Shown one piece after another: positions 10,412-23,073 of a DNA stretch of 64,000 nt. This DNA is from an uncultured Acidobacteriota bacterium. GTDB taxonomy: Bacteria; Acidobacteriota; UBA6911. How positions within the stretch are numbered: position 1 is the first letter of the stretch; the number at the start of each line of letters is the position of its first letter. The stretch is taken from the NCBI GenBank assembly GCA_963843575.1, contig CAWJKZ010000009.1:189016-253015 (forward strand), read 5' to 3'. The translations under genes were made by a program, and so were the position numbers. Under the pieces are notes generated by a model. That model searched no databases. It was not told the DNA's origin and saw nothing but the letters and a program-made list of their open reading frames with translations.

Positions 10412-11398
10412 GGGGGTATCCCCTTGACTCAAGTGACCACAATATGTGGCGTACGGGCTCGTGGGAGATTATCCTCGAACGCTAGCCGAGTTCGAAGCCC
10501 GTTTCGCGACCGGGGGCGCGTGTCGAGCGTATCTGGTTCAATTGCGTTTGGCCGGACGGGTTCTGGTGCCCTACCTGCGGGCAGGGAAAGGCCTGGCGCG
10601 CGGCCGACGCTCTTCCACTGCGCGAACTGCGGACGGCAGAGCTAAGTCACTGCCGGGACGATCTTTCAAGACACGCGGACGCCGCTGCCCACGTGGTTTC
10701 GCGCCATGTGGTGGGTCACGAGCCAGAAGACGGACGCGAGTGCAACAGGCCTCCAGCAGGTGTTGGGCTTGGGGAGCTACGAAACGGCGTGGATTTGGCT
10801 GCACAAGTTGAGTCGAGCGATCGTGCGCCCGGGGCGCGATCGGCTGACGGGCATAGTCGAAGTCGACAAGACGTACCTGAGTGGGCCTGAGGAGGGCGTC
10901 CGCGGCCGGCAAACCGAAAAGAAGGCGTTGGTTGCAGTCGCGGTTGAGGAGGTAGGCGAGGGGATGGGACGTATCCGGATGCGCCGGATCCCCGACGCCT
11001 CGGCTGACAGTATCCAAGCCTTCGTCGAGGAGGCCGCATGCCGGGCAGTCTCCTCCACACCGACGGATTCTTCAGTTACGACCGGCTGGAGAAATGTGGC
11101 TACCGGCATCGGATCACGTTTCTCAAAGGGCGCAAGGAATCGGCGGCGGAGCTGCTGCCGCGGGGCCACCGCGTGGTGTCCCTGCTCAAACGGTGGCTCC
11201 TCGGCACGCACCAAGGTGCCGTCAGCCATGCCCACCTGGATTACTATCTCGATGAGTTCACTTTCCGGTTCAACAGGCGTACATCCCGGCATCGCGGAAA
11301 ACTGTTCTACCGGTCGCTCGTCAAGCACGTGCGAGCTGCGCGGCCAGGACGGCGGCACCACAACTAATAGTGGCTACTTGAGTCAAGGGGATACTCCC
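10412..11398 (+). mobile_element. IS1595-family (ISXO2-like) insertion sequence with frameshifted transposase
   Basis: 23-bp inverted repeats GGGGGTATCCCCTTGACTCAAGT / ACTTGAGTCAAGGGGATACTCCC; VEVDKTY, HTDG and YLDEFTFRFNRR motifs across frames. Confidence 0.88.
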
Positions 11399-11475
11399 AA
11401 TTCATTCGATTCTGCGGTTTCAGCGTGGAAACCGTAGGTGTTAAAAACATCATGGTAGTTCGTCAGGGGGTATGA

Positions 11476-14400
11476 ATGGAGAGCGAGTTGCGGTCAGGCG
11501 AGCTTATAGGCCTGCGATATGCGGTTGAGGGCAGTCTGGGCAAAAGCGGACTAGGACAAACCTACAAATGCCGAGACTTATTCAATCAGGAGCAATATGT
11601 AGTTGTGAAAACCTTGCGGCGTGAAGCAAATGATAGTTTGATCCGAGCTATTCCCGCACTGATACGGCTCCGGCATCCGGGCCTTATACGGATCTTAGAT
11701 TTTGGAACTCTCTGCGACGGCGAAACGGCCTTCATTGTGGAGGAATTTGTTGATGGGAAGGACGTGTTCCACTCAACTCTAGGACGTAGTGTAAGAGAGC
11801 TCGTGCGCACCTTAGTAGACTTGTGTCGGGCTTTGCAGTATCTCCATATCAATGGTATTGCACATAGAAATCTGAAGCCAAGCAACATCGTGTTGGTTGC
11901 TGACAGCGGTAAAACAGAGACACTAAAACTACTTGATTATGGGCTGCTCCCCTCTACGCCCGGCTTTCAGAATCTAGCAGGTGCTAACAGGCTGGCCTAT
12001 ATGGCGCCTGAGATTCTTATGGGGCAATTACCAAGTTTGCGAACGGATCTGTACGCGTTGGGTGTTGTAGCGTATGAACTGTTTCTGCGCCGGTTGCCGT
12101 TTGATGATGACGACGAAGGCTATTTAGTGCAAAAGCACCTTCATGGCGAGGTTGATACCCGGCAATTCCAACGGATGCAGGGCGGGACCGCGCTGTCGCA
12201 GATTCTACGCACACTTCTTGAGAAGAACCCGGATAAGCGGCCATCATCTCCCGAAGAGGTAGTTCGACTGTTGAGCGTGGCGACAGGACTCGACTATGCT
12301 TCTACCTGCGCGACGACATCCGAGACCTACTTCTCAGTGGGGCCATTTGTCGGTCGGCTTAAGGAGATGGCGCTGCTGCAGAATATAGCGACGGAAGTGA
12401 AAACAAGTCGACATGGCAGGTCGGTTTTTGTCACTGGGGAAGGTGGAAGCGGAAAGACGAGGTTAATGGAGGAGTTCCGGACTTGGGCGCTGCTAAGCGG
12501 ATGGCGTGTTGTTGAAGGCAGTTGCTGGCCGGCAGAGGAGAAGACCTATTTGCCTTACCGGCAAATCCTTTCCGCAATGGATAGGCTTGATCCGGTGGGG
12601 ACCGTTGCGGCTGATAAATGCACCATATTTCGATTTGACGATCTCACAACGGTAAGCTCAGTGGCAGAATTGGATCCCACGTCCGATGCGGCTGCCCGGC
12701 AGTTTCGTGACAGACTCACTCGTGAGATGTTACGTCGACTATCGGGCCGACCTACGATTCTTTTGTTCCACGACTTCCACTACGCAGACGAAGCAACTGT
12801 GGCAATCTTAGATTACCTCTTATCGGATATAGCGTCAGAATCTCTGATGGTTTGCGTGAGCCTGCGCACGACAGGTGACCTTGCCGAGCCAATCAGGCGC
12901 GTGGTGGACCGACGTGTTAGGCTGCAGCACTCCAACAGAATCGAATTAGCGCCTTTAACAGAAGGGGATGTGGAGAACTGGGTTACCGGGCTAACTGGAT
13001 CACAAACGCTAGGTTTACGGTTGGGAAAATGGTTGCATCGAGGCGGAGGTGGTAATGCATTCTTTGTAGAAGAGATAATGAAGCACCTCATTGACCGTAC
13101 CATACTGCATCGCGTGTCTGGAAATTGGTTCCTGGACTCTGCAGCGATGGACCGGATGGAGGTTCCGGCTAGTGTAGCACTTCTCATTGGTAAACGGTTG
13201 AAGCTACTATCTGATCTAGCAGCTGAAATCTGTCGGTGGATCGCGGTGTTCAGGTGTGACGTTTCGCAGGAACTGCTTTGCTGCGCCAGCAATGTGTGCC
13301 TGGACGCGATGGACAAGGCGATCGCTGAGCTCATAGAAAGACGATTGGTGGAGAGGTGCTCTGATAGTGGGGAGGTCCATTTTCAGTTTTGCCACACACT
13401 GGTGGGCGATGTCGTTCGTGAACTCATCGTGCCGCGCAAACGCCGAAACATGCACTTGCGAATCGCTGAGGTGATCGAAGATGCATCCGAACCTGGGTCC
13501 CACATCCAAGAACTCGCATTTCACTATACAGAGTGCGGGAGCGGCCTGAAGGCAGTGCATTACGCACTTCGCGCCGCAGCCATATATAAGGCGGAATTCT
13601 CAAGCGAGCCGGCACTCAGGATGTGCGAATTCGTCCTTCGCCACGGGGACGGAATGTCTCACGATGAGATATCTGAAGTTGCCATAATGGCGGCCGAATT
13701 ATGCTGCGCCCTGGGCGTATCGAAACGTGCTCGCCGTATTCTAGCTGGTCAGCTGATTCCTCCCAGTTCGGGGAGGCGGGGGATGCGAGGCCGTCTTCAG
13801 CTTTCTCTAGCCAGATGCTACCAATTCTCTGGACAATTATCGAAATCAAAGTCCATTGCACAACGTGGATTGAGGACACTCAGCAGGCAGCACTGCGATG
13901 CGGCGGTGGACCTTATTCGCCCCGCACTGTTAGCCCAGATTGCATTTTGCCTGATGGCTGAGTCGCGGCCACGATCAGGACTTCGGTTGGCGAGGAAGGC
14001 TCTGAAGGATTTAGGTGACGCGGCAGATGGGACGCTAGTTGGGCACCTTCACACCTTGATTGCAGGTCTTTGTTGTATAGCCTGCGAATTTGAAGAGGGT
14101 CGTCAGGCAGCACTGAAGGCGATTGAGATACTTGAGCCGTTAAATGCCATTGATCTGTTACCCATTGCATACAGTCACCTAGGAATTAACCTTGCGGGAT
14201 TGGGACGTCTGGCAGATGGAGTGGAGACCCACAGGAAGGCAGTCAATCTGAGTCGGAAGTCACGCTCGGCGCTGCTTAAATGTCAGGCAATGTGTAATTT
14301 GGCCGAGTGTTATCATCGGTCTGGACAAATTGCGGCTGCGTACACGCAATGTCGGGAGATGCTGAAAATAGCGGACGAGGTTGATAATACTCAGATCCAA

Positions 14401-16827
14401 TATGCAGGTGACGTTTGTCTTCTTGGCATTGAGATTGCGGATGGCGAATATGCTGGTGCGACTAAGACATTAGACAGGATTCGTAAAATGGATTGTCGTA
14501 GACTTCCAATCTATGCTCGGGCTCAGGCATTGTATTATGCTGCATCGTTAGAGGTGCGACTGGGTGAATATCGTGCTGCGGAAGTCGATTTAGATGAGCT
14601 TGAGTCTTTTGTTGGGAAGGAGACGCCAATTTATGAGGCAAGCTTAGGCCTCATGCTAAGGCTATGGATTAGTCACCGGAGGGGAGAGCATGAGTTCGCA
14701 GTGAGGCAAATGATTGTTCTTAGGAGATTGCTTCGGCGGCGGCATTGGTTATTCCAATTGGCCTTGTTGGATCTGCAATTATCTAAGATCTATTTTGACA
14801 GTGATGATGTTGAAAAGGCAGGACGTTCTGCGCGGTCGGCGGTGCGACTGGCAAAGAGAATTCCCGCTGTCCAGATTCAAGCTGAGGCTCAACTCGTGCT
14901 TGCCCGTGCGTTGTTGGCGAGTGACGGTGCAGGTTCAGGATCATCGGAATCTGTGGAAAGTATTAAACAAACTGAGCGGAGGTGCAAAGAAGTGAAGGAG
15001 ATGCTAGAGGCCGCTGGTGCAGGGAACCATACGTGGCAGGTTTGCTGCGAGTTGGCTAGAGTCGCTATGGTGCAGCATAGCCAAGCAGAGGCTTCACTGC
15101 ATTGCGAGGAAGCGCTTGGAGGTATAAGGTCCTATGAATACAAGCTAGGACCGTTACATAAGAAACTTGATGAGTGTCGTTTCGCGAGGAACCAATGTGA
15201 AAGAATGATGGAGCAGTGTAGGCCGTTGCCCGGTAGGTTATGTGCAGATCCGGGCCTAATGGAGGAGATTCAGCTACGAATGCTGTTGCGATTCAGTGCT
15301 ATTATGAACTCTATAACACCACTGAATGAATTAGTTAAAACCGTAGTTAATTTGCTAGAAGAGATGCATAAGCGCAGTCAAGTGATGCTCTTTATGGTAG
15401 GAGATACGGAAGGGCAGCTGCGACTCGTGCGTGGAAATTGCGACGCGGCGGAAGAGGACGCTGCTACGGTCGGCATTGTGAATTACGTTTACAGAACCTC
15501 GAGCCCTTTTGTCACTGGGGATGGCTTCATGGATCAACGTTTAGGTTCAGTGATAGATGAAAAAGTGTGCGGCACTATTTTCTGTGGTCCGGTCAGAACG
15601 TCTGATGGAATTGTTGGAGTTATTTACATTGCGAATCGCGAGCGAACGGGACCTATAGAGGTTGGGAACATCAACGCATTTGAGACCTTCTGTAATCTCG
15701 CTGGCATCGCAATAGGAAATGCGATCAGGAATAGAAATCTTGCAGAGGAGAAAGAGCGGCTTGAGCTTAGAGTGGAAAGAGCTGAAAATTCTCAGAACAA
15801 CATTATTGGGCGAAGCGAAGTTATGCAAGCGCTTAAAAGAAGAATTGCCGTCGTTGGCTCTTCGCCACTTGACGTTCTTATAATGGGTGAGAGTGGTACG
15901 GGCAAGGAATTGGTTGCGAAGGCCTTGCATAAGGTGGGTAGGCGGAGTGGAATGCCTTTGATTGCGCTGGATTGTGGAGCGTTGACGGATAACCTTATTG
16001 AAGGTGAATTGTTTGGGTATCGGAAGGGCTCGTTTACCGGTGCGACCGAAACGAAGGCGGGGCTGATTGAGTCGGCGAATGGGGGGGTACTTTTTCTGGA
16101 CGAGGTATCGAATTTGCCGCTGCGATTGCAGGGCAAATTATTGAGGGCTTTGCAGGAGAGAGAGATAAGACGATTGGGGGAAATCGTCCCACGGAGAGTC
16201 GATATTCAAATTATTGCTGCAACTAATAAGGAACTCCGATATGAAGTTCAGAAGGGTAGGTTCCGGAAGGATCTATTCTATCGAATTAATTCAGTCGAAA
16301 TTCGAGTCCCGCCACTTCGCGAACATAGAGAGGATGTCGCTGAATTGGTAGAGCATTTTATGAAGGAATTGACTGTCGCTGAGAATGGTAGAGCGAAATG
16401 CTTCGGCAGAGAGGCACTTGGTGTTCTAAAGGCGTATGGATATCCTGGGAATGTGAGAGAATTAAAGAATATTGTGCAAAGCGCATACTATTGTGCTCTT
16501 TCCTCAACAATAACGCTGCAGGATCTGCCATGCGAATTTCGTGAAGTGGAGGCCATGGAGCTGGACGATAATAGCGCTGCAAGCATTATCGAACTGCTGA
16601 GGAACCGTAAGGGAAATTTTGAAGAACTGGTCAAGACTCCTTTTATTAGACACGAATTCGGTGTGTCTGTGCTTCGGGAAATTATAAGGGCATTCTTGCG
16701 GGACGCAAAGGGTCGATATCGCTTAGCGTTTAGGGCGATGCAGGTGCCGGAAAGGGATTATTCGGTTACGATACAATTTCTGAAGCGCCACAGGGGTTAT
16801 CTCGATTTTAGATTATTTAGGTGGTAA
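11476..16827 (+). CDS. giant Ser/Thr kinase-like + P-loop ATPase + TPR + GAF + sigma54-interacting activator (1783 aa)
   Basis: HRNLKPSN/LLDYG/YMAPE kinase domain; GEGGSGKT; helical repeats; GESGTGKE, GSFTGA, LFLDEV and YPGNVRELKN of a bacterial enhancer-binding protein. Confidence 0.9.
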   Translation: MESELRSGELIGLRYAVEGSLGKSGLGQTYKCRDLFNQEQYVVVKTLRREANDSLIRAIPALIRLRHPGLIRILDFGTLCDGETAFIVEEFVDGKDVFHSTLGRSVRELVRTLVDLCRALQYLHINGIAHRNLKPSNIVLVADSGKTETLKLLDYGLLPSTPGFQNLAGANRLAYMAPEILMGQLPSLRTDLYALGVVAYELFLRRLPFDDDDEGYLVQKHLHGEVDTRQFQRMQGGTALSQILRTLLEKNPDKRPSSPEEVVRLLSVATGLDYASTCATTSETYFSVGPFVGRLKEMALLQNIATEVKTSRHGRSVFVTGEGGSGKTRLMEEFRTWALLSGWRVVEGSCWPAEEKTYLPYRQILSAMDRLDPVGTVAADKCTIFRFDDLTTVSSVAELDPTSDAAARQFRDRLTREMLRRLSGRPTILLFHDFHYADEATVAILDYLLSDIASESLMVCVSLRTTGDLAEPIRRVVDRRVRLQHSNRIELAPLTEGDVENWVTGLTGSQTLGLRLGKWLHRGGGGNAFFVEEIMKHLIDRTILHRVSGNWFLDSAAMDRMEVPASVALLIGKRLKLLSDLAAEICRWIAVFRCDVSQELLCCASNVCLDAMDKAIAELIERRLVERCSDSGEVHFQFCHTLVGDVVRELIVPRKRRNMHLRIAEVIEDASEPGSHIQELAFHYTECGSGLKAVHYALRAAAIYKAEFSSEPALRMCEFVLRHGDGMSHDEISEVAIMAAELCCALGVSKRARRILAGQLIPPSSGRRGMRGRLQLSLARCYQFSGQLSKSKSIAQRGLRTLSRQHCDAAVDLIRPALLAQIAFCLMAESRPRSGLRLARKALKDLGDAADGTLVGHLHTLIAGLCCIACEFEEGRQAALKAIEILEPLNAIDLLPIAYSHLGINLAGLGRLADGVETHRKAVNLSRKSRSALLKCQAMCNLAECYHRSGQIAAAYTQCREMLKIADEVDNTQIQYAGDVCLLGIEIADGEYAGATKTLDRIRKMDCRRLPIYARAQALYYAASLEVRLGEYRAAEVDLDELESFVGKETPIYEASLGLMLRLWISHRRGEHEFAVRQMIVLRRLLRRRHWLFQLALLDLQLSKIYFDSDDVEKAGRSARSAVRLAKRIPAVQIQAEAQLVLARALLASDGAGSGSSESVESIKQTERRCKEVKEMLEAAGAGNHTWQVCCELARVAMVQHSQAEASLHCEEALGGIRSYEYKLGPLHKKLDECRFARNQCERMMEQCRPLPGRLCADPGLMEEIQLRMLLRFSAIMNSITPLNELVKTVVNLLEEMHKRSQVMLFMVGDTEGQLRLVRGNCDAAEEDAATVGIVNYVYRTSSPFVTGDGFMDQRLGSVIDEKVCGTIFCGPVRTSDGIVGVIYIANRERTGPIEVGNINAFETFCNLAGIAIGNAIRNRNLAEEKERLELRVERAENSQNNIIGRSEVMQALKRRIAVVGSSPLDVLIMGESGTGKELVAKALHKVGRRSGMPLIALDCGALTDNLIEGELFGYRKGSFTGATETKAGLIESANGGVLFLDEVSNLPLRLQGKLLRALQEREIRRLGEIVPRRVDIQIIAATNKELRYEVQKGRFRKDLFYRINSVEIRVPPLREHREDVAELVEHFMKELTVAENGRAKCFGREALGVLKAYGYPGNVRELKNIVQSAYYCALSSTITLQDLPCEFREVEAMELDDNSAASIIELLRNRKGNFEELVKTPFIRHEFGVSVLREIIRAFLRDAKGRYRLAFRAMQVPERDYSVTIQFLKRHRGYLDFRLFRW

Positions 16828-16841
16828 ACGGAGTGGATGAA

Positions 16842-19295
16842 CTAGGTTTGATCTTTGGCTCTGGGAGAGAATTCAATTATGTGTCTGCTGGAGTCGTCCT
16901 CGACAGGATTGCCGAGCTTGGCATGCTCGGTGAGCTGCTGTTGGGCACAGCGTAGAAGGGCAACGAGGCTGTCGCCATCATTAGGGTATGAGGATACGGC
17001 AAAATTGCAGTTTGCATAGACATTGTGTGCGAAAATGTTCGGCGTCGCCGTGTTCCATACCTGAGACTGCAGGCGTTGCCCATATCGAACAGCCTGTTCT
17101 GCACGAACGCCTGGGAGTAAAGCGATAAAGGACTGATAACCATATCGGACGAGGACGTCGGTTTGCCTTATCTCAGCTCGAAATAGGTCGGCGATATTTT
17201 TGGCGACCGCGCTGGCAGTTTCCGTTCCGTACAAATTCACAATATGGTGGTAGTTTCTGATGTCAAAAAAGAGAAGGGATAGTGGAGAGCTATTTTGCCG
17301 GGCGAGGTTTGTTAATTGTTCGCCTGCAACATATAGGTAGGGTACGCCATGAGTATCGGTGAGAGGGTCTCGATGAGTTGGTTGGTGAAATGCGGTGGTT
17401 CCCGCGGAGCTCGCCAACAATGGAGCAAGCTGCTCGGCGACGGCCTGAAGGAGAGCAAGTTGGGTGCTAGAAAAGGAACGACTGGCTTCACTGTAGAGTG
17501 TAATTGCGCCCAGGCACTTTCCGTCGAAGAGCAACGGCACCGAGAGGACATCTGAGAAAGAGGCCAAGCGTCCTGGGAGATCGTGAAATTCAAGTGCAGG
17601 ATTAGTATTATAAATTGGCCGCTTATATGCAGCAACCCAACCACTGACGCCTTTGCCTAACTCAAGGCGGAAATCTAGTAGTTGATCTGCATACTTTCCC
17701 GAGGTGTGAACTGCACGAACCGAATTGCTACCCTCGTCGGTAAAGAAGGCACACATGGTGAATGGTATAAGTCGACGCAGTCGTCTCGATACAACGTCAA
17801 AAACATCAGTTAGTTCCAGTTGTCTGCCGATGCTATGGCAGAATTCGAAGAGGTGGATGAGCTCCGAAGATGACGGCACGTTCGGAATTAGATCAGAGAT
17901 GCTCAAGTTGGAACAAGAAAGTTCACGGTCGACAGTCTCGAAGTACCTTCGAAAGGAAAGTTCCGGCATATTTTGAGCTGCTTCATCAGCAGATTTTTCG
18001 AGAGCAGCAATATGTTGCACAAGAATATTCACAAGTGACGGATCATATGCGGTTCCGGCTTGTGACTTCAAAAGTTCGACTGAATCCTGTATCCCGAATG
18101 ATAACTTATACGGTCTGTTTGAGCGGATGGCATCAAAGGCGTCGGCTATCGCCAGAATACGAGCGCCGAGCGGTATCTGGTCGGCTTTAAGCCCGTCAGG
18201 ATAGCCTTGGCCGTCCCAACGTTCATGATGACAACGGACATACAGCGCGACTGGGAAAGGGAAACGGATCTGACGGAGTATTTCATCTCCGGCTGCTGCA
18301 TGCATCTTCATCTTATCGAATTCTTGCTTACTGAGGCGCCCCGGTTTGTTGAGAATATAATCGTCTATTGCCAATTTGCCGATGTCGTGTAACAGCGACC
18401 CTGTTTCAATTGCCATCAGGTCGTTTGGATCTGTTATGCCAGCGAGTTTAGCCAAGCCAAGAGCATAGGCTCTGACGCGACGTATGTGTCCGTAAGTGGT
18501 CTGGTCCTTCGCGTCGACAGCCAGCGCAAGTGATTCGACGGTTCTGAGGTAAAGTTGTTCTTGTTCTTTGAGGTGTTTCTCGGCCTCCATGGCTTTGGCT
18601 TTGTTCAGCTTGTTCCAGCCCCAGACCACACCGATGAGAGGGGCGACCGCCAGCGGAACCCAGGGCGAGTCGTCTCGATACAGCTTGACAATAAAAGCAG
18701 CGGAAACGGCGGATACCGAAAATTCAACTCCGAGTGACAAATAGTTTTGTGTCCAAAATTTTATTACATGCTGACCGCTGGCGAATGAGATGGCAGTTGC
18801 GGTGGAAAGAGAGTTAAGAATGAAGAAGGTGGTTGTCAGCGCCACAATAGGCAAGAGGATCTCAGTTCCGTTTCGACTGAGCGTCGGATTTAGATAACAA
18901 TAGATGTGGCTATAGAGCCAGGCACAACAAACGGTGCTCGAAATATTAAAAACGACGCGGTATGGGTATATCTTCGGTCTGTTGGGTACGAGAAGCGATC
19001 CGGCGAGCGTGTGCGATAGAGTTGCGACAATACAAGGAGAGGTGCCATATATCATGGCGATTGCCATGACGTAGGCATCGCCGATTCCCACAATGGTGCT
19101 TACCGACGGCAGAAGTAGATAAAAGGGAACGGTGAGGACAGTAAGGACAATAAGGACGATCCATCCGCTATCATTTGGATGTGAATTATATACTAGATCC
19201 CAAAACGAATACCAGATAACTGGAAATGCGAATGCGCTTAACAGGACTATATAGAGCTTAAGTTTTGAAGGAAGGTCGTGCCAAGTCATCGACAT
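16842..19295 (-). CDS. membrane-anchored HD-GYP phosphodiesterase with GAF and degenerate GGDEF domains
   Basis: About six N-terminal TM helices; AVDAKDQTTYGH, LHDIGK and HHERWDGQGYP; GAF (GVSGWVAA); GGDEF site reads YGYQSF. Confidence 0.9.
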   Translation of the reverse strand: MSMTWHDLPSKLKLYIVLLSAFAFPVIWYSFWDLVYNSHPNDSGWIVLIVLTVLTVPFYLLLPSVSTIVGIGDAYVMAIAMIYGTSPCIVATLSHTLAGSLLVPNRPKIYPYRVVFNISSTVCCAWLYSHIYCYLNPTLSRNGTEILLPIVALTTTFFILNSLSTATAISFASGQHVIKFWTQNYLSLGVEFSVSAVSAAFIVKLYRDDSPWVPLAVAPLIGVVWGWNKLNKAKAMEAEKHLKEQEQLYLRTVESLALAVDAKDQTTYGHIRRVRAYALGLAKLAGITDPNDLMAIETGSLLHDIGKLAIDDYILNKPGRLSKQEFDKMKMHAAAGDEILRQIRFPFPVALYVRCHHERWDGQGYPDGLKADQIPLGARILAIADAFDAIRSNRPYKLSFGIQDSVELLKSQAGTAYDPSLVNILVQHIAALEKSADEAAQNMPELSFRRYFETVDRELSCSNLSISDLIPNVPSSSELIHLFEFCHSIGRQLELTDVFDVVSRRLRRLIPFTMCAFFTDEGSNSVRAVHTSGKYADQLLDFRLELGKGVSGWVAAYKRPIYNTNPALEFHDLPGRLASFSDVLSVPLLFDGKCLGAITLYSEASRSFSSTQLALLQAVAEQLAPLLASSAGTTAFHQPTHRDPLTDTHGVPYLYVAGEQLTNLARQNSSPLSLLFFDIRNYHHIVNLYGTETASAVAKNIADLFRAEIRQTDVLVRYGYQSFIALLPGVRAEQAVRYGQRLQSQVWNTATPNIFAHNVYANCNFAVSSYPNDGDSLVALLRCAQQQLTEHAKLGNPVEDDSSRHIIEFSPRAKDQT

Positions 19296-19511
19296 AGGCA
19301 GGCTACGAAAGAGCTCCAGCACTCAAAGCATCGAACCAGAACAAGGAGTGTAATGGTCTTCGTACCGTTGGCATGAGCACCACAAGAACTAGCGGAATGC
19401 GGACTGCTTGTCTCCTAAGGAGTAAGAATACTTAAGTGTTTCATAAAGTTGGGAACAGCGATATCCCTGAGCCCTCGACCAAAGGTAATCGGTCCAGGTT
19501 CGCGATCCCGA

Positions 19512-19571
19512 TTACAGCCAGAGGACACTTGGACTTTCGCGCATTTCAAGAAGTTCTATATCGGTCTGCAC
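19512..19571 (-). CDS. micro-peptide 5: MQTDIELLEMRESPSVLWL (GTG start)
   Basis: AAAGGTGG RBS-like motif; diverged paralogue of the two neighbouring 19-aa ORFs with the same length and C-terminus. Confidence 0.75.
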   Translation of the reverse strand: MQTDIELLEMRESPSVLWL

Positions 19572-19593
19572 GTTTACCACCTTTAGAGGCTTG

Positions 19594-19653
19594 TTAAAGC
19601 CAGAGAACGCTCGGGTTTTCGCGGGATTCGAGGATTTCGATTTCGGTCTGCAT
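19594..19653 (-). CDS. micro-peptide 4: MQTEIEILESRENPSVLWL
   Basis: Same peptide as 19682..19741, differing only by synonymous codons and the stop codon; weak AGGT RBS. Confidence 0.8.
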   Translation of the reverse strand: MQTEIEILESRENPSVLWL

Positions 19654-19681
19654 GTTGTTAAACCTGTGCTTCAGTGCTAAT

Positions 19682-19741
19682 CTAGAGCCAAAGGACGCTC
19701 GGGTTTTCGCGGGATTCGAGGATTTCGATTTCGGTCTGCAT
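19682..19741 (-). CDS. micro-peptide 3: MQTEIEILESRENPSVLWL
   Basis: AGGAG RBS 6 nt before ATG; DNA identity with the next copy is confined to the ORF. Confidence 0.82.
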   Translation of the reverse strand: MQTEIEILESRENPSVLWL

Positions 19742-19803
19742 TTGAGGCTCCTGATGGGTCAAAAATTCGGTTTTGGGTTTCAAACGTGTTTTGCGGGAGG
19801 TGC

Positions 19804-19836
19804 TTACAGCCAGAGAATTGCGCCTGGATGCGACAT
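19804..19836 (-). CDS. micro-peptide 2: MSHPGAILWL
   Basis: AAGGAG RBS 6 nt before ATG; duplicate of 19906..19938 with CTC/CTG and TAA/TAG differences. Confidence 0.78.
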   Translation of the reverse strand: MSHPGAILWL

Positions 19837-19905
19837 GGAATGCTCCTTCTTTGTTACGGTTTGAGGTGAGTTGCCTGCACGATCGCCCGGACGGGCGGCC
19901 CGCGC

Positions 19906-19938
19906 CTACAGCCACAGAATTGCGCCTGGATGCGACAT
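19906..19938 (-). CDS. micro-peptide 1: MSHPGAILWL
   Basis: GGAGG RBS 9 nt before ATG; shares the P-x-x-(x)-LWL C-terminus with the other four ORFs. Confidence 0.78.
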   Translation of the reverse strand: MSHPGAILWL

Positions 19939-20527
19939 GGTTTGTTGCCTCCGATGCTTTGATCATGGTTTTCATCTTAACTAACACCCCGTTGGACCCC
20001 ATTGTCCACCGGCCCCACCGCACCTGCTGTGGGCAGTGTCACACGCGCCGCAGATTCCACTGCAGGTGGACTGCGACTCTAACTCCTATGGACGTAGTTG
20101 CTTACGACAGGTGAGTGCCGGGCGGTGCCGTAGAGACACATCGAAATGGGGGGCAATACTCCCCCACTCCGCGGCGCCCTACGCGCGCTTGACCGCTGCC
20201 GGACCTTCTGCAGCTTCAGCTTCGCTCTTGTTCAATTTGGTCGCGCCCGAAATCATCCGACGGTGGCTGGCCGCCCGACCAGGCGCTTTTCCTTGAAAGA
20301 GCTATTCGAGAATTGCCGACCCCCGCAAACTCCCGGGGGATTCGCTGCCCCTCAACCCTGCCGCGCAAACCCATCAACAAAGGGTCTACGCCCAGTAGCA
20401 ATGCAATTGATTAATATGGAGGCGAGATTAATGACGTCGCCACGGGCATGTCAATAAGAATTTGCAGATTTTTCAGATTATGTGGTTTTGACCGGAAATA
20501 AGGGAATTCACAGAATTCATGAAAATC

Positions 20528-20553
20528 GGGGCCGCGGCGGGCCGCCGCGGCCC
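20528..20553. terminator. GC-rich hairpin downstream of the M50-HlyD gene
   Basis: GGGCCGCGGCG-N3-CGCCGCGGCCC stem immediately after the stop codon; same stem as at 4652. Confidence 0.45.
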
Positions 20554-20560
20554 ACTTTTG

Positions 20561-22957
20561 CTAGGGCAGGTACTCCCAGAATTCGGTGCGCAGCCAGCGG
20601 ACCAGACGGCGCGTCGCAAGCTCGCCCACGCGCCGCTTGCCGCACAGGATCTTCCCCACGCCCGTCATCCCCGCCTTCAACAGCCCGTCCCGGTTCTCCA
20701 GCTCCCCCTGGACCAGCACCATCCGCTCCGAGCCCGACTGCACCGCCACCGGCGATATCGTCTTCACCTCGGCCTCGAACGAACGCTTCGGGTAGCCGCG
20801 CACCTTCATCGTGATCCTGTAGCCCGGGTGCACGTCCGCGATCTCCTTCTCCGGGACCGGCATGTCGATCTTCACCACCCCGAGGCTGACGATGTCGCAC
20901 AGCGCCGCCCCCTTCGCCAGGTACTCCCCCACCCGGTTGCGCAGGTACGGCGTCGCCACCACCCCGTCGATCTCGCTCCTTATCCTCAGCATCTCCAGCT
21001 GCTGCGCCAGGATCCCGGCGCTCGTCTCGAGCTTGGCCACCTCGGCCTCCACCGCCCGGACCGCCTCTTTGCGCGAGCCCGCCTGCAGGATCCTCAGCTC
21101 GCTCTGCGCCTGGGTCACCTCCCGGCGCTTCACCTGGTAGGTGCGGTCCGTGCGCTCGGCCAGCACCCTCAGCTGCCCCTCGGCCTCCGAAAGCTCCTGC
21201 TGCTGCACCTCGAAGGTCGTCCGGTCCCGCTCGACCTCGTTGCGGGCGATGAGCCCCTCCTGCAGCAGCCTGTGGCTCCGCTCGTAGTTGGCGCGCGCCT
21301 GTTCGAGCTCCGCCCGCCTCTTGGCGACCGTCTCGAAAAGCACCTTGCGCTCCTGCTCGACCCGGAGCGTGTTGCTCATCTCGGCCCTCTTGGTCTCCAC
21401 CTGCCGCTGCGCCCGCTCGATCTCCTCGGGCCGCGTCCCCGCCCTGAGCAGCGCCAGCGCCGCCCGCCTCTCCTCGAGGTCGCCGCGCGTCTCCTCGTAG
21501 CTGTTGCTCAGCTCCAGGTTCTCGAGCTCCGCCAGGACGTCGCCGCGGCTCACCCGCGTCCCCTCGTCCACCAGGATCGATTTCAGGGTCCCGTCCACCC
21601 GGGCGCTGATCGACGCGCGCTTCTGCGCGTTGATCGTGAAGTCGCCCGAGACCTTCAGCTCCCACGGGACGAGCGCCACGGCCGCCAGTACCAGCGCCAG
21701 GATCAGGAGCCGCAGCGCCTTGCGCCGGCGCGCGCGCCACTTGTCCGCCGCGGCGTCCGCCGCGGGCGCCGGGCCCGCGGGCGCGGCCGGGCCCCTCCCC
21801 GGGAGCGGGGCCGCCAGCAGCACGACCGCCGACAGCGCCACGATCCCCCACCCCTTGTACTCGCTCACCAGCCAGCCGCCGACGCGCTCGAGCATCACCC
21901 AGGCCAGCGCCGCGGAAAAAAGCAGCGACGCGGTCCCGAACAGCCCGAAGATCGCCTTCTCCCTCGGGGTCGCCCCCGTCGCGGCCGCCCCGCCGAAGAG
22001 CCAGCCGGCCAGGCGGCGGCGCAGGTAGCCGAAGGACTTCGACCGGAGGTTGGGGACCTCCAGCAGGTCGCTCACCAGGTAGTACCCGTCCAGCCGGATC
22101 AGAGGGTTGAAGTTGAACAGCGTCTGGATCCCGGTGAACGCGATCGTCACCAGGCAGACCCGCGACGCGAACGTCTCGACCGCCAGCAGGCGCCACGCGA
22201 AGACCGCGCAGGCCCACACCAGCAGCTGTGCCCAGCCCCCCGCCAGCGTCACCAGCGCCCGCTCGCGCTTGCGCAGCATCCAGGCGTCGCTGATGTTGCA
22301 GTAAAACGCCGGGATGAAGTAAAGGAGCAGGAAGCCCATCTCCTCCGTCTTGCCGCCGTAGTGCTTCAGGGCCAGCCCGTGGGCGAACTCGTGCGCCGTC
22401 ATGACCGCGAACGCCACCGCCACGACGAGCGGGATCGACGAGAGCGACAGCAGCGAGCCCAGCGAGACGAACAGCAGCTCCCGGTTCACCACCGCGATCG
22501 CCGAGGCCCCCGCCACCGCCGCCCACCCCGCCGCCGTGAACGCCGGGTGGAAGCAGAAGCGCAGGCGGCGCTCGAGCCGGGTCAGCAGCGCGTCGGGGTT
22601 GAAGGCGCGGATCTTTATGCTCAGGATGTCGCGCAGCAGCCGGCGCCTCGGCCTGGCCAGGGCCTCCAGCCGGCGCCAGCAGGGCTCCTCGTCCAGGAGG
22701 AGCAGGGCGCGCAGCCGGCCGGCGAAGTCGCGGACCTGCGCCTCGGTCACCGGCGTGCCGAGCCGCGCCGACACCTCGGCCGCGACCGCGGCCGGCGCGC
22801 CGGTGCCGTCGAGCCTGGCGAGGACCGCGGCCTGCACCGCCGTGAAGCGGTAGAAGCGGCGCGCGACCGGGTCCTTGACGACGACGGGCGAACCCGGGTC
22901 CGGCGTCTCGCTCCGGAGCTCCAGGTCCCGCCGCACCTTGATGTGACCCTCTCCCAT
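20561..22957 (-). CDS. PqqD/RRE-like + M50 site-2 zinc metalloprotease + HlyD/membrane-fusion adaptor fusion (putative peptide maturase-exporter)
   Basis: N-terminal VVKDPVARRFYRF...LDG...LL (PqqD-like); HEFAH and FNFNPLIRLDGY M50 motifs; lipoyl-like halves, long coiled coil and beta-barrel of HlyD. Confidence 0.85.
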   Translation of the reverse strand: MGEGHIKVRRDLELRSETPDPGSPVVVKDPVARRFYRFTAVQAAVLARLDGTGAPAAVAAEVSARLGTPVTEAQVRDFAGRLRALLLLDEEPCWRRLEALARPRRRLLRDILSIKIRAFNPDALLTRLERRLRFCFHPAFTAAGWAAVAGASAIAVVNRELLFVSLGSLLSLSSIPLVVAVAFAVMTAHEFAHGLALKHYGGKTEEMGFLLLYFIPAFYCNISDAWMLRKRERALVTLAGGWAQLLVWACAVFAWRLLAVETFASRVCLVTIAFTGIQTLFNFNPLIRLDGYYLVSDLLEVPNLRSKSFGYLRRRLAGWLFGGAAATGATPREKAIFGLFGTASLLFSAALAWVMLERVGGWLVSEYKGWGIVALSAVVLLAAPLPGRGPAAPAGPAPAADAAADKWRARRRKALRLLILALVLAAVALVPWELKVSGDFTINAQKRASISARVDGTLKSILVDEGTRVSRGDVLAELENLELSNSYEETRGDLEERRAALALLRAGTRPEEIERAQRQVETKRAEMSNTLRVEQERKVLFETVAKRRAELEQARANYERSHRLLQEGLIARNEVERDRTTFEVQQQELSEAEGQLRVLAERTDRTYQVKRREVTQAQSELRILQAGSRKEAVRAVEAEVAKLETSAGILAQQLEMLRIRSEIDGVVATPYLRNRVGEYLAKGAALCDIVSLGVVKIDMPVPEKEIADVHPGYRITMKVRGYPKRSFEAEVKTISPVAVQSGSERMVLVQGELENRDGLLKAGMTGVGKILCGKRRVGELATRRLVRWLRTEFWEYLP

Positions 22958-23073
22958 TTACCCCCTTGGGATTTTCCGGCAAGTGTCCGTGTGGCCGCAT
23001 CGTAAGGGGAGCCCGGATGAAAATGCAACTGGATTGAGTGGGACGGAGGGGGGCGGATCGCGCTATTTGCGGC

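Follow-up and report, generated by a model that had tools for sequence, protein, structure and literature searches.

Five Trp micro-peptide genes between a protease-exporter and a membrane HD-GYP sensor in an uncultured acidobacterium look like an apparently undescribed peptide pheromone system

Daptides and MASE9 sensor domains are described systems that resemble parts of the locus considered here. Daptide leaders carry the motif ELExMEAP, in which L(-7) is essential and E(-3) and P(-1) contribute, and Thr is the invariant C-terminus of daptides. Galperin and Chou have proposed that MASE9 binds some ligand within the membrane. The window, which is the whole 64,000-nucleotide stretch of DNA that was analysed, contains five Trp micro-peptide genes which, together with the flanking protease-exporter and sensor, look like an apparently undescribed peptide pheromone system. 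An RRE-M50-HlyD fusion, the five micro-ORFs and a membrane HD-GYP-GAF-GGDEF protein are encoded on the minus strand, and a sigma54 activator on the plus strand converges on them. An earlier note on this DNA had described co-oriented minus-strand parts and a convergent 1783-aa activator, and this description was borne out, as all four parts were confirmed at the coordinates given there.

The arrangement is conserved rather than due to chance. All 14 relatives that were fetched have M50-HlyD, the intergenic array and HD-GYP in the same order, and an orthologue of the convergent activator adjoins the HD-GYP gene in 13 of them. The co-occurrence in other genomes on which the earlier note had staked its reading is therefore found. 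Of the 24 genomes of the acidobacterial family, 22 have M50-HlyD orthologues. When 185,579 species genomes were scanned, an HD-GYP gene was located within 4.5 kb downstream at 22 of 62 loci, and at the majority of the other 40 the sequence ends early. Three of the 22 loci are from Terriglobia MAGs and have the same order, with MYGVIWV and a 30-32-aa leader peptide (...EIEELEQKIAPS...). G004 is an exception in which each of the three genes is on a contig of its own, and a search at either gene revealed no peptides. In G003, G006 and G008 both the HD-GYP gene and the activator gene are in fragments. G001, a genome of the same genus that is 81% complete, keeps the peptides and HD-GYP, and no activator orthologue was found in it with the window query.

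The RRE-M50-HlyD fusion (20561-22957, minus strand, 798 aa; Pfam and NCBIfam) is the putative maturase. It consists of an RRE at about residues 4-90 (22688-22948), an M50 domain at about residues 112-393, and a TM anchor with HlyD at about residues 411-798. Its nearest family appears to be the daptide RRE-peptidases, since residues 20-383 match the NCBIfam family "daptide biosynthesis intramembrane metalloprotease" (E 8.7e-64), although the score of 216 bits does not reach the family cutoff of 300. The C-terminal half exceeds the cutoff of HlyD/RND_mfp TIGR01730 (122.5 bits, cutoff 94.9). In the AF2 model (pLDDT 88.1) the N-terminus folds as an RRE, similar to the TbiB1 RRE 5v1v (Z 10.4, rmsd 2.3 over 83 residues), 6jx3_B (Z 10.6) and PqqD 5sxy (Z 8.1). 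This region had been called PqqD-like or RRE; the RRE fold stands (Z 10.4-10.6), but Pfam PqqD gave no match at E 0.01 or better, and the RRE assignment is thus made because of the fold. The site-2-type protease proposed earlier is supported by the M50 fold (Z 10.7 against RseP 7w6y) and by a core in which HExxH and NxxPxxxLDG are intact. Both HEFAHG and NFNPLIRLDGYY are invariant across 12 M50-HlyD orthologues. Translation of two further long frames over 20517-23162 gives low-complexity sequence, and the DNA there is 71% G+C.

The five micro-ORFs, all on the minus strand, are of two types. The type-A micro-ORFs at 19906-19938 (ribosome-binding site GGAGG) and 19804-19836 (AAGGAG) both encode the leaderless 10-residue peptide MSHPGAILWL. 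Type-B peptides have 19 residues with the leader EIEILExRExP. The first two (19682-19741, and 19594-19653 with a weak ribosome-binding site) encode MQTEIEILESRENPSVLWL and differ from each other at synonymous sites and the stop codon only, and the third (19512-19571, ribosome-binding site AAGGTGG) starts with GTG, giving (M)QTDIELLEMRESPSVLWL. A GGAG-type ribosome-binding site precedes four of the five micro-ORFs. Both peptide types were found again downstream of M50-HlyD orthologues (identity at least 47%) at 29 of 37 loci, and six of the eight loci without peptides have less than 600 nt of downstream DNA. Arrays in relatives contain up to 4-5 near-identical copies, the Trp near the stop codon is invariant, and several relatives have cores ending in Thr (ILWT, IIWT, IVWT). 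Codon usage indicates that the peptides are under amino-acid selection. For 14 type-B codons in 40 copies the summed entropy at codon positions 1, 2 and 3 is 4.4, 2.9 and 14.1, a third-position bias that is partly forced by the search pattern, with the Pro, Thr and Gln columns outside that pattern; all four synonyms are in use for the Pro(-1) codon. The type-B leader of the window, I-L-E-S-R-E-N-P, has L(-7), E(-6), E(-3) and P(-1) like daptide ELExMEAP and resembles the leader recognised by the characterised daptide RRE-site-2-protease. Since the 19-mers have a daptide-like leader ending in Pro, pentapeptide cores are predicted, and by analogy cleavage after Pro14 would yield SVLWL. The invariant type-A peptide may act as a co-signal or competitor, or it may prime the sensor.

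The HD-GYP protein (16842-19322, minus strand, 826 aa) has an N-terminal polytopic membrane domain followed by HD_5/HD-GYP (Pfam, E 1.4e-33), GAF and GGDEF domains. The true start is likely the ATG at 19295 (MSMTW...), which is preferred because the orthologue alignment starts at MTW. HHERWDGxGYP is conserved among orthologues. The GGDEF domain named in the earlier note turned out to be degenerate (RYGYQSF), though its RxxD I-site is present in all 11 aligned orthologues. The sensor domain, residues 10-256 (18555-19295, minus strand), is a multi-helix membrane domain. Pfam MASE9 matches only 2 of 11 sensor orthologues (best E 1.3e-4), and the atlas features of the domain score 0.96 against MASE9 clusters. 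A structure search of 48,161 chains with the domain (AF2 model, pLDDT 82.6) returned ECF S components in all top 15 places (Z 8.2-14.2), the first unrelated chain having Z 6.8. The model thus suggests a MASE9-like domain with an ECF-transporter S-component-like fold of the ligand-binding type.

In three genera the sensor clusters with the peptide core class and against taxonomy, a pattern that recalls pherotypes; it consists of one contrast in each of the three genera, a number insufficient for a sign test, and the core classes were named after the identity table had been seen. In genus g1 the window (SVLWL) and G001 (MIVWY) are 87.9% identical in M50-HlyD and 40.1% in the sensor. The corresponding values are 70.2% and 39.1% for G006 (SVLWM) and G016 (MIVWY) in g6, and 67.3% and 33.2% for G017 (SVLWI) and G010 (TIVWY) in g10. 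Same-class pairs across genera have sensor identities of 51-74% and M50-HlyD identities of 56-60%, and all the pairs listed have HD-GYP catalytic domains of 75-89% identity. In the sensor tree a clade of the window and G001 is rejected by the AU test (p 1.8e-6) and the xIxWY class is a clade (support 97/94). Nucleotide collinearity between the window and G001 (83%) extends from 23063 to 19611, stops inside the type-B array and returns only in the HD-GYP domain. The distance from the type-B genes to the sensor domain is no more than about 200-400 nt, and the co-variation could therefore result from hitch-hiking in a single recombination tract. With M50-HlyD controlled, core distance and sensor distance were not significantly correlated among 18 genomes (partial Mantel r 0.17, p 0.09), in a crude test that dropped G001 and loci with incomplete hits, no core or a duplicate genome. 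The pairing of peptide and sensor claimed earlier therefore gains indirect support from the S-component-like fold, the three-genus clustering and the pairing of Trp micro-ORFs with the sensor gene elsewhere, but the 18-genome correlation is weak.

Elsewhere in the phylum a subtilase takes the place of M50-HlyD, and by sequence these systems appear to be an independent second design. A subtilase precedes the MASE9 gene at every one of the nine loci that are informative in other families of the class, and likewise at 11 of the 20 MASE9 sites that were sampled phylum-wide. Its C-terminus carries tandem xxW hexapeptides (QVIWTD, QILWSD, GSLWSD and others) in arrays of more than 20 copies. Between the two genes there is a 7-11-aa Trp micro-ORF at 8 of the 20 sampled sites, ending roughly 30-100 nt before the MASE9 gene; the motif was counted 6 times in the 7,000 nt that lead up to MASE9 genes and once in 162,630 nt elsewhere.

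On balance we favour the view that the module is a self-contained ribosomal peptide signalling system with pheromone- or quorum-sensing-like logic. With the same moderate confidence, the sequences suggest that the HD-GYP sensor domain perceives a peptide signal that has first been matured and exported. A sigma70-type promoter would give a transcript with a structured leader, two leaderless 10-mers (...AILWL) and three 19-mers. The cytoplasmic RRE of the maturase would bind the acidic EIEILExRExP leader of type B, and the intramembrane M50 site may cut after Pro(-1), a site proposed by analogy with the daptide peptidase MpaP/DapP, to give a hydrophobic pentapeptide, SVLWL in the window. The fused membrane-fusion domain may then take the peptide across the periplasm, probably via an unlinked outer-membrane channel; no linked gene for an inner-membrane transporter or outer-membrane factor was found. 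The MASE9-like, ECF-S-component-like domain would bind the peptide in or at the membrane, which would gate c-di-GMP hydrolysis, and the GAF domain and the degenerate GGDEF with its intact I-site may exert allosteric control of the HD-GYP protein. From synteny, the convergent pseudokinase-STAND-TPR-GAF-sigma54 activator would make sigma54-dependent genes in other parts of the genome respond to the state of the system.

The peptides may instead be secreted bioactive (antimicrobial or surface-active) products of a minimal unmodified daptide-like RiPP, with the HD-GYP protein and activator as the producer's regulators or self-sensors, as in lantibiotic autoinduction. This is unlikely. The closest protease family is that of the leader peptidase of membrane-active antimicrobials, the precursor genes are multi-copy, the HlyD fusion fits secretion, and the ILWT, IIWT and IVWT cores share the C-terminal Thr that is invariant in daptides. 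However, the predicted peptides have only 5-9 residues, the hypervariable partner is the sensor domain and not the protease, and the same sensor gene with Trp micro-ORFs is also paired with a different protease. Moreover, no immunity or ABC genes linked to the module were found, and the ORFs scanned in the window region include no daptide modification genes. The absence of a modifying enzyme asserted earlier holds for the ORFs scanned from 8.8 to 27 kb.

The preferred reading places the receptor in the membrane. It is quite unlikely that the receptor is cytoplasmic, following the logic of Rap/Rgg/PlcR receptors, with re-imported peptides binding the TPR of the activator and HD-GYP sensing something else. 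The activator (11476-16827, plus strand, 1783 aa) has Pkinase, AAA_16 (STAND), MalT-like TPR, GAF, Sigma54_activat (E 5.5e-65) and AAA_lid_14 domains by Pfam and NCBIfam. The kinase of the earlier note proved to be a pseudokinase: the catalytic Asp is missing, HRD reading HRN in the window and HHH, HGH or HGD in orthologues, and Arg replaces the VAIK Lys in four of five sequences. GAFTGA reads GSFTGA, the Walker A and Walker B motifs are both intact, and the C-terminal tail is conserved. The MalT-like TPR is a sensor region, and between G017 and G010, of the same genus and different core classes, TPR identity is 41.6% and 27.9% versus 70-80% in STAND, AAA+ and the C-terminus; the G017 TPR1 segment is about as close to that of the window (43.9%) as to that of G010. 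These values come from one sequence triple only, however, and fast evolution is general among TPR regions. An oligopeptide-type ABC importer and M19 dipeptidase at 3434-8532 could serve re-import, but transposase fragments at 8799-11437 part them from the module. In addition, G001 has the peptides and HD-GYP without the activator, and the pairing of micro-ORF and MASE9 is phylum-wide.

A candidate promoter of the peptide transcript at 20425-20454 (minus strand) is sigma70-like, TTGACA-N17/18-TAATCT, as is that of M50-HlyD at 22999-23028 (minus strand), TTGCAT-N17-TACGAT; both are consensus matches only. TTGACA-N16-18-TAnnnT is located 102-180 nt upstream of a leader 18-mer in 26 of the 29 sources holding the 18-mer, and a majority of the 37 orthologous loci have TTGCAa/t...TAtcAT at the equivalent position. 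A terminator-like hairpin (20529-20553, minus strand; 11 G-C pairs and a T run) is directly 3' of the M50-HlyD stop. A search of the module for a -24/-12 sigma54 promoter found none, either in the window or in 8 relatives. The sigma54 wiring proposed earlier thus finds no support at the promoters, which in both transcription units are conserved and sigma70-like, and synteny is left as its sole argument.

The 5' leader of the peptide transcript would carry a conserved structured element (20224-20311, minus strand) whose inner helices covary. The 18-mer TCTCGAATAGCTCTTTCA (20311-20294), present with at most 4 mismatches in 29 of 63 scanned sources, opens a long-range helix closed by the strand TGAACAAGAGC. 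For 25 sequences the helices are 94.4% paired versus 87.0% in shuffles (RNAalifold, pair counts), with 40 compensatory cells versus 10.2 +/- 4.2; slid controls gave 19-46%. Rfam gave no family at E 1 or better except one chance miRNA match. The leader region 19931-20352 is found in RNA contigs with 0-5 differences (4 metatranscriptome runs), and part of the array, 19498-19633, in an RNA-library contig with none; these contigs, from one study, attest presence only, without strand, ends or expression level. The micro-ORFs could also be cis-acting leader peptides (upstream ORFs, ribosome arrest or attenuation) that tune HD-GYP expression with this leader RNA, the free peptide being irrelevant, but this is very improbable. 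The micro-ORFs are in all cases located 5' of the MASE9-HD-GYP gene and read in its direction, at close range in the subtilase-linked systems, the array is preceded by the structured leader, and the invariant Trp is close to the stop codon. However, each copy in the tandem arrays has its own ribosome-binding site, the type-B leader matches an RRE-recognised leader, the neighbouring RRE-protease is conserved, and the long xxW arrays on subtilases suit released peptides and not attenuation.

An accidental juxtaposition, through horizontal acquisition of a low-G+C island or in a chimeric MAG contig, has almost no probability: near 20.3 kb the G+C content falls from 0.71 in M50-HlyD to 0.50 in the HD-GYP and activator genes, there are the transposase fragments, and the source genome is a MAG (88% complete, 3.3% contamination), but for the module as a whole the idea is refuted by the order repeated in the relatives and in many independent assemblies, and G001 has a like G+C step (0.71 / 0.48).

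The module consists of three large genes and an array of micro-ORFs, and the three genes lie where the earlier note had placed them, as confirmed by ORF listing, translation and domain scans. Positions 20561-22957 on the minus strand encode a 798-residue protein (M50-HlyD) in which residues 20-383 resemble a daptide metalloprotease and residues ~411-798 an HlyD/RND membrane-fusion protein. Positions 16842-19322, also on the minus strand, encode the 826-residue sensor protein, which has a polytopic N-terminus followed by HD-GYP, GAF and GGDEF domains. Five micro-ORFs are located on the same strand in the gap that separates these two genes. The plus-strand gene at 11476-16827 encodes a 1783-residue activator with Pkinase, AAA_16 (STAND), MalT-like TPR, GAF, Sigma54_activat and AAA_lid domains. 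The source MAG is 6.68 Mb in 27 contigs, 88% complete with 3.3% contamination.

The earlier note had expected these components to occur together in other genomes, and they do. Orthologues of M50-HlyD with 47-90% identity were found in 22 of the 24 sampled genomes of the family, and the co-directional order M50-HlyD, intergenic region, HD-GYP gene is present in all 14 relatives that were fetched (coordinates and tblastn). The large activator converges on the HD-GYP gene in 13 of the 14, the exception being G001, a genome of the window's genus. A species scan (one genome per species, 185,579 genomes) gave 62 M50-HlyD loci; the HD-GYP gene lies downstream within the 4.5-kb flank in 22 of them, and a contig edge ends most of the others. 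The relative G004 is a true exception, with its three genes on three contigs and no peptides beside either the protease gene or the sensor gene. One unpublished genome, G034, has a row in the tallies only and supports no claim. Certain module genes are fragmented or contain stops in three relatives (G003, G006 and G008). In G006 the activator orthologue (locus L040, G006:C2, 473-5865) is broken by one TGA and eight TAG codons and the HD-GYP gene is split, but M50-HlyD and the peptides look intact, therefore the regulator half of this genome may be decaying.

Two types of micro-ORF are found in the array. Type A is leaderless and is present in two copies that encode MSHPGAILWL; type B has a leader and is present in three copies, two encoding MQTEIEILESRENPSVLWL and one (M)QTDIELLEMRESPSVLWL. 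The two identical type-B copies differ only at synonymous positions and in the stop codon. Micro-ORFs of types A/B preceded by an RBS occur downstream of the M50-HlyD orthologues in 13 of the 14 relatives and in 29 of 37 species-scan loci, and six of the eight loci that have no peptides have less than 600 nt of DNA downstream. In total, 40 type-A copies from 31 loci and 40 type-B copies from 25 loci were collected. Type-A peptides have 8-10 residues and an almost invariant (A/G)ILWL end (e.g. MASAILWL, MASGILWL and MNRLGAILWL); being invariant, type A cannot be the specificity determinant. Type-B peptides share M-Q-T-E-I-E-I-L-E-x-R-E-x-P followed by a variable core (SVLWL, SVLWI, TIVWY, MIVWY, TIFWY, TILWT, AIIWT, IVLWGWH and others). 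Variation among type-B copies concentrates at the third codon position (summed entropies 4.4, 2.9 and 14.1) and the Pro codon is CCG, CCA, CCT or CCC; the search pattern fixes some columns and leaves the Pro, Thr and Gln columns free. Judged by their codons, the micro-ORFs are conserved as peptides.

Similar arrangements are found further away. Three Terriglobia MAGs, in which M50-HlyD is 37-39% identical, have M50-HlyD followed by the 7-codon MYGVIWV, a 30-32-residue peptide that contains ...EIEELEQKIAPS... and a MASE9-HD-GYP homologue, and in a Solibacteraceae MAG MTFGVIWI is accompanied by a leader peptide of a similar kind. Five of the longer leader peptides from relatives gave only sub-threshold matches in NCBIfam and Pfam (Amm_Lyn_leader, E 0.015; Sigma54_AID, E 0.042). 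The gene of microcin C7, mccA, has 7 codons and is among the shortest translated genes, and the type-A relatives of 7-8 codons (MYGVIWV, MASAILWL) are comparable in length; however, the adenylating enzyme of that system is missing here, and the two are unrelated in both chemistry and function. A Gemmatimonadales MAG has two precursors with an LEELEQRIAPS leader upstream of M50-HlyD. These precursors (locus L091, 3812-4139) have 47-49 residues, a common leader LRLEELEQRIAPS and Asn/Gly/Pro-rich cores, thus the RRE-M50-HlyD family serves other peptide types outside Acidobacteriota.

The protein proposed to mature the peptides was modeled with AF2 (residues 1-400, 25-sequence alignment, pLDDT 88.1). 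Residues 4-90 of the model have strands at 13-16, 25-29 and 34-38 and helices at 40-48, 55-66 and 72-84. This region superimposes on TbiB1 (5v1v; Z 10.4, rmsd 2.3 over 83 residues) and on 6jx3_B (Z 10.6), both of them leader-bound RREs of lasso-peptide systems, and also on PqqD (Z 8.1) and the cyanobactin heterocyclase RREs LynD/TruD (Z 7.4-7.9). As modeled, the N-terminal domain has the RRE (PqqD-like) fold and is a predicted leader binder. Residues 170-300 match RseP (7w6y; Z 10.7, rmsd 3.0 over 130 residues) and S2P (3b4r; Foldseek probability 1.00). The M50 motifs HEFAHG and NFNPLIRLDGYY are invariant in 12 orthologues, as is NFNPLIRLDG, which has the form NxxPxxxLDG; the Pfam Peptidase_M50 model does not match the protein at E 0.01 or better. 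The best NCBIfam match of residues 20-383 is NF041824, 'daptide biosynthesis intramembrane metalloprotease' (E 8.7e-64, 216 bits against a cutoff of 300), and a weak match to YydH/LiaK was also obtained (E 4.7e-13, 49 bits against 225). YydH/LiaK, the epipeptide maturation protease, is an M50-type RiPP protease like that of the window, but its radical-SAM epimerase is absent in the window. The HlyD half scores 122.5 bits with TIGR01730, above the cutoff of 94.9, also matches HlyD_D23 (E 3.9e-23) and HlyD_3 (E 2.7e-14), and has the barrel-sandwich, lipoyl and coiled-coil hairpin elements after one TM anchor. No inner-membrane transporter or outer-membrane factor gene is found next to M50-HlyD in the window, the family or 13 distant loci. 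The 13 distant homologues, from Vicinamibacterales, Gemmatimonadales, Chthoniobacterales, Ignavibacteria, Planctomycetota, Zixibacteria and Verrucomicrobiota, have no recurrent neighboring transporter or regulator, and FemAB-like genes are present at two of them.

The closest comparison for this protein is the daptide peptidase. According to the daptide preprint, that enzyme has an RRE fused N-terminally to a site-2 protease and removes the leader, ELExMEAP, in which the essential residues are L(-7) and M(-4) and further contributions come from E(-8), P(-5), E(-3) and P(-1) (bioRxiv 10.1101/2023.03.08.531785). MpaP/DapP and the window maturase have the same RRE-then-M50 order but the HlyD/MFP fusion is found only in the latter. 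Daptide precursors, as described there, are like those of the window in being short and multi-copy, with an acidic leader that ends in Pro and has Leu at -7 and Glu at -3. Numbered from Pro, the type-B leader reads I(-8) L(-7) E(-6) S(-5) R(-4) E(-3) N(-2) P(-1); by analogy with daptides, cleavage is predicted after Pro14 and would yield the pentapeptide SVLWL. The leader EIEILESRENP is similar to that of a daptide precursor, however, the core has 5 residues and ends in Leu; cores have 5-9 residues whereas daptide cores have ~20 aliphatic residues, and the invariant C-terminal Thr of daptides is seen only in some relatives. Actinomycetota and Bacillota are the phyla for which daptide models were built, whereas the host of the module belongs to Acidobacteriota. 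The earlier statement that modifying enzymes are absent agrees with the Pfam scans, in which no daptide tailoring genes (DapB (DUF-RRE), oxidative decarboxylase/ADH, aminotransferase or methyltransferase) were found among the ORFs scanned from 504 to 32752. The module is not a daptide cluster.

The sensor protein has intact HD-GYP metal motifs (LLHDIGK and HHERWDGQGYP in 11 of 11 orthologues; HD_5, E 1.4e-33) and its HD-GYP domain is a predicted c-di-GMP phosphodiesterase. The HD-GYP-GAF-GGDEF architecture described in the earlier note stands, but the GGDEF active site does not: it reads RYGYQSF in the window and is degenerate in 11 of 11 orthologues, all of which keep the RxxD I-site five residues upstream. 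The membrane domain scores 0.96 to MASE9 clusters in an Atlas feature search. Pfam MASE9 (PF20972) does not match the window protein and matches only 2 of 11 orthologues (best E 1.3e-4), which indicates a divergent branch. MASE9-HD-GYP-GAF-GGDEF proteins have an architecture identical to that of the window sensor protein, with intact HD-GYP motifs. Galperin and Chou have proposed that MASE9 binds a ligand within the membrane, and in the accessible part of their paper neither a ligand nor a connection with peptides or proteases is reported (bioRxiv 10.1101/2021.11.05.467447).

An AF2 model of the sensor domain (pLDDT 82.6) was compared with 48,161 chains, and the top 15 are all ECF-transporter S components (Z 8.2-14.2 over 146-186 residues, values that are inflated for helical bundles), including CbiM/NikM (CbiM 4m5c, Z 14.2), RibU (Z 12.0), FolT, ThiT, BioY, PanT and BtuM; the best unrelated chain after these has Z 6.8. 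Pfam ECF-ribofla_trS matches 2 of 11 orthologues weakly. It is likely that the modeled domain shares the S-component fold because the matches form a clean family block and cover the full domain. S components are small proteins of the membrane with a high affinity for the small ligands they bind, and the model suggests that the sensor domain is shaped like a small-ligand binder. Sequence identity to S components is only 6-16%, the model has extra N- and C-terminal helices, and the sensor domain is fused to signaling domains whereas S components dock to an ECF module.

In three genera the peptide cores and the sensor domains vary together. The window and G001 are collinear with 83% nucleotide identity from 23063 down to 19611, a stretch that spans M50-HlyD, the leader, type A and the first type-B copies; the alignment breaks at 19611 and returns only in the HD-GYP catalytic region at ~71%. 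The pair has different cores (g1; SVLWL in the window, MIVWY in G001), and M50-HlyD is 87.9% identical but the sensor domain is only 40.1% identical. The same is seen for G006 and G016 (g6; SVLWM and MIVWY; M50-HlyD 70.2%, sensor 39.1%) and for G017 and G010 (g10; SVLWI and TIVWY; 67.3% and 33.2%), these being three independent contrasts only, with core classes that were named after the identities had been seen. For cross-genus pairs with the same core class the sensor and M50-HlyD identities are 74.1% and 60.1% (window and G006), 53.1% and 57.6% (window and G017), 60.2% and 59.5% (G001 and G016) and 54.8% and 55.9% (G001 and G010). The HD-GYP catalytic domain is 75-89% identical in all of these pairs. 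When 13 sensor domains were placed in a maximum-likelihood tree, the four xI(V/F)WY genomes grouped together as a clade (97/94), a branch of length 1.5 (100/100) separated them and G003 from all others, and the AU test rejected a clade of the window and G001 (p 1.8e-6). At the sequence level this is a pherotype pattern, in which a putative ligand-receptor block is exchanged or kept across taxa and the flanks are conserved. Linkage contributes to the co-variation since the array and the sensor domain are adjacent. A partial Mantel test of core against sensor distance (n=18), which is crude and left out G001 and other loci failing filters, was not significant (r 0.17, p 0.09).

A second association comes from other families of the class, where the MASE9-HD-GYP gene adjoins a Peptidase_S8 subtilase and not M50-HlyD (9 of 9 informative loci). 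The STAND-sigma54 activator is also beside the subtilase in the three loci checked (L105-L107, L105 being masked in part). The C-termini of the subtilases are tandem hexapeptide arrays (QVIWTD more than 25 times, DLITWTN, QILWSD, SVMWTS, GSLWSD, GVLWGD), and the subtilase may carry its own multi-core precursor. Next come one or two Trp micro-ORFs or short multi-core ORFs (MIAQIVYWTD, MMVQIVYWTD, MKIIYWTE, MRIVYWD, MKIWHWGD, MATEINIVHWIDGDQDLNIVHWTDGGSDVNIVHWTD), and then the sensor gene. Array-tailed subtilases that precede a Trp micro-ORF and a MASE9 sensor gene were observed at L106 (5439-7841, minus strand), L109-L113, L115-L122, L125, L128 and L129. A MASE9 profile matches 77 of 301 sampled genomes of the phylum. 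Among the 20 highest-scoring sites outside the window's family, one per genome, a subtilase is directly upstream in 11, and in 8 a micro-ORF of 8-10 codons of the ...(I/V)(I/V)WG(E/D/S) type lies between the subtilase and the sensor gene; one extra match is seemingly spurious. Fixed-motif ORFs number 6 in the 7,000 nt just upstream of sensor genes compared with 1 in the other 162,630 nt, and that single ORF likewise has a subtilase on one side and a sensor gene on the other. A single sensor family and a single Phi-Phi-Trp core thus go with two unrelated proteases and three precursor formats, which would be difficult to account for if the peptides and the sensor did not work together.

The peptides appear to have their own transcript. 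A terminator-like hairpin, G+C-rich and with a T run, is located immediately after the M50-HlyD stop (20553-20529, minus strand), and a promoter-like site, TTGACA-N17/18-TAATCT, lies ~100 nt beyond it (20454-20425, minus strand). The 18-mer TCTCGAATAGCTCTCTCA at 20311-20294 on the same strand is conserved across relatives; when 63 sources were scanned, 26 of the 29 having the 18-mer also had TTGACA-N16-18-TAnnnT 102-180 nt upstream of it. In the leader RNA a long-range helix runs from the 18-mer and closes on TGAGCAAGAGC, and the inner helices covary. In 25 sequences 94.4% of cells are paired compared with 87.0 +/- 1.0% in shuffles, 40 cells are compensatory compared with 10.2 +/- 4.2, and slid controls give 19-46%. 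This structured RNA, possibly a new cis-regulatory element, sits within the 5' leader of the peptide transcript at 20224-20311 on the minus strand, and 25 aligned loci have it at the homologous position. Rfam returned for 19200-20700, at E 1 or better, one chance plant miRNA model (21.5 bits against 57.3) and none of the known riboswitches, including the c-di-GMP classes. Four metatranscriptome runs, all from one sediment study, gave RNA contigs over 19931-20352 (0-5 differences) and 19498-19633; such contigs show presence in RNA libraries and are uninformative on strand, ends, level and absence. The large flanking genes are uncovered in the four contig sets, which cannot show absence. Many further RNA-library contigs have ~40-nt matches to type-B ORFs with flanks that differ, and these presumably come from relatives.

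The activator was described in the earlier note as a kinase with a sigma54 output. In the window the catalytic HRD motif reads HRN, and orthologues have HHH, HGH, HGD or AGS; Arg replaces the VAIK Lys in 4 of 5 sequences, and DFG is degenerate in 2 of 5. Since the catalytic Asp is absent, as is the VAIK Lys in orthologues, the domain is a pseudokinase and the kinase label has to be dropped. The sigma54 part of the description holds for the AAA+ domain, which is intact by its Walker A/B and GAFTGA-loop motifs (Sigma54_activat, E 5.5e-65; GESGTGKE, FLDEV and GSFTGA in the window, GAFTGA in 4 orthologues), but not for a local -24/-12 promoter. Sites of the form GG-N10-GC were scored against TGGCACG-N4-TTGCW (12 specified positions), and none with at least 10 of 12 consensus positions was found in window 8000-27000. 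The best intergenic sites, in the window as well as in 14 relatives, have 8-9 of 12 and are mainly within peptide ORFs, none is conserved across the modules of 8 relatives, and no -24/-12 site is present upstream of M50-HlyD, which has a sigma70-like consensus match at 22999-23028 (minus strand) whose position is kept in relatives. The last 80 residues of the activator are conserved, yet match no Pfam HTH family, and the protein is tied to the module by synteny only.

The TPR region of the activator raises an alternative to sensing in the membrane, namely that re-imported peptide may be read by a cytoplasmic, RRNPP-like TPR receptor. In favor of this, the TPR region is hypervariable: in the same-genus genomes G017 and G010 it shows 41.6% and 27.9% identity compared with 70-80% in the STAND, AAA+ and C-terminal parts, a result from one informative triple of sequences. 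The Pfam and NCBIfam tables of the three module proteins contain no homologues of Rap/Rgg/PlcR, nor of AgrB/AgrC. In the comparison of the window activator (11476-16827) with the loci L029 and L030, two genomes of one genus diverge far more in the TPR region than in the other domains, which are 55-80% identical.

The boldest reading, a possibility that falls short of probable, is a phylum-wide, undescribed group of Acidobacteriota pheromones with a Phi-Phi-Trp core that are made by three precursor routes, read out by MASE9-HD-GYP proteins and exchanged as pherotypes. The sources of the peptides would be very short genes (7-10 codons), precursors with a daptide-like leader that the RRE-M50-MFP 'protease-exporter' cleaves, or tandem arrays on the subtilase tail. 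They would be read inside the membrane, where ECF-S-component-like MASE9 domains would gate c-di-GMP hydrolysis by HD-GYP, and peptide and sensor would co-diversify into pherotypes that are exchanged between genera. The core of the earlier interpretation, with its RRE-guided protease-exporter, real peptides, conserved co-occurrence and plausible membrane receptor, is supported.

The logic of the module resembles that of staphylococcal agr, although the Pfam and NCBIfam tables of its three large proteins show no homologous component. In agr (AgrB-AgrD-AgrC-AgrA) a membrane protease/exporter, a small precursor, a polytopic membrane sensor and a transcription activator are encoded together, and the membrane domain of the sensor and the peptide diverge jointly, forming specificity groups that do not follow species boundaries. 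The thiolactone-forming Cys of agr is absent here, the protease is not the variable part, and the proposed output is c-di-GMP hydrolysis and not histidine-kinase phosphorylation. In those tables the module shows no homology to agr or RRNPP systems, and by analogy it would work most like agr. The M50 protease Eep matures enterococcal sex pheromones and streptococcal SHP peptides in Gram-positive hosts, where a hydrophobic C-terminal pheromone of 5-8 residues is released from a ~20-residue precursor, exported by PptAB and read by cytoplasmic RRNPP receptors. Release of a short hydrophobic C-terminal peptide by an M50 protease is also proposed here, but Eep has no RRE or MFP and its precursors are basic/hydrophobic rather than acidic.

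Peptide pheromones are textbook in Gram-positive bacteria and rare in diderm bacteria. If true, the reading would give a peptide pheromone system in diderm bacteria and the first quorum-sensing route from a peptide to c-di-GMP; the literature searched contains no description of a c-di-GMP phosphodiesterase that reads a ribosomal peptide. To our knowledge MASE9 is a sensor domain without a known ligand, and the peptides would be candidates for the first one. RRE-guided intramembrane proteases would then work outside antibiotic pathways. Genes of 7-10 codons escape standard annotation. The reading suggests how Acidobacteriota, which are abundant in soil and sediment and hard to culture, may coordinate biofilm or exopolysaccharide behavior, and the SVLW-type and IVWY-type sensor/peptide classes are built-in cognate and non-cognate controls. 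Searches on M50-HlyD RiPPs, daptides and RRE-site-2 proteases returned no description of the module, though daptide supplementary lists could mention the fusion, and neither did searches on MASE9, the AILWL/IIWGE/IVYWTD/QVIWTD motifs and acidobacterial peptide quorum sensing, with bioRxiv supplements outside the search.

Several observations concern the surroundings of these genes. At L108 (G031:C22, 1866-8518) a subtilase-linked MASE9-HD-GYP gene is followed by genes for a GT2 glycosyltransferase, a REC-HD-GYP response regulator and Wza-like and Wzz/tyrosine-kinase-like exopolysaccharide export, neighbors that fit a c-di-GMP output on exopolysaccharide. A 231-residue stand-alone Peptidase_M50 gene at 23180-23875 (plus strand) is divergent from M50-HlyD, and it was excluded from the module because it adjoins M50-HlyD in 0 of 14 relatives. 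FGE-sulfatase-like, RlmI-like methyltransferase, CCA/poly(A) polymerase and TPR protein genes are upstream of M50-HlyD in 26-29 of 31 loci from relatives and are not at that position in the window; they were treated as core-genome synteny. The FGE-sulfatase-like gene is divergently adjacent to M50-HlyD, ~150-1000 nt upstream (L043-L079; 29 of 31 loci with enough flank), and may encode a peptide-modifying enzyme.

The G+C content is 0.71 in M50-HlyD but only 0.50-0.54 in the array, in the HD-GYP gene and in the activator. In the 71% G+C DNA at 20517-23162 three ORFs, each of ~800 residues or longer, overlap on both strands, and domain matches and orthologues are shown only for the 20561-22957 minus-strand frame. 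The step is also found in G001 (0.71 and 0.48) and is small in relatives of lower G+C content, which fits an origin of the regulator half by import from such kin and does not fit misassembly. Two insertion-sequence remnants at 8799-11437 (DUF772 and DDE_Tnp_1, apparently frameshifted, and an IS1595-like fragment) lie at the left edge of the low-G+C stretch (~0.49-0.56), which extends to ~20.3 kb in a genome of 0.65-0.72. Just past these remnants, 3434-8532 on the minus strand encodes an M19 membrane dipeptidase and an oligopeptide-type ABC importer, with SBP_bac_5 fused or adjacent to two BPD_transp_1 permease genes, and these could be relevant if the peptides are re-imported.
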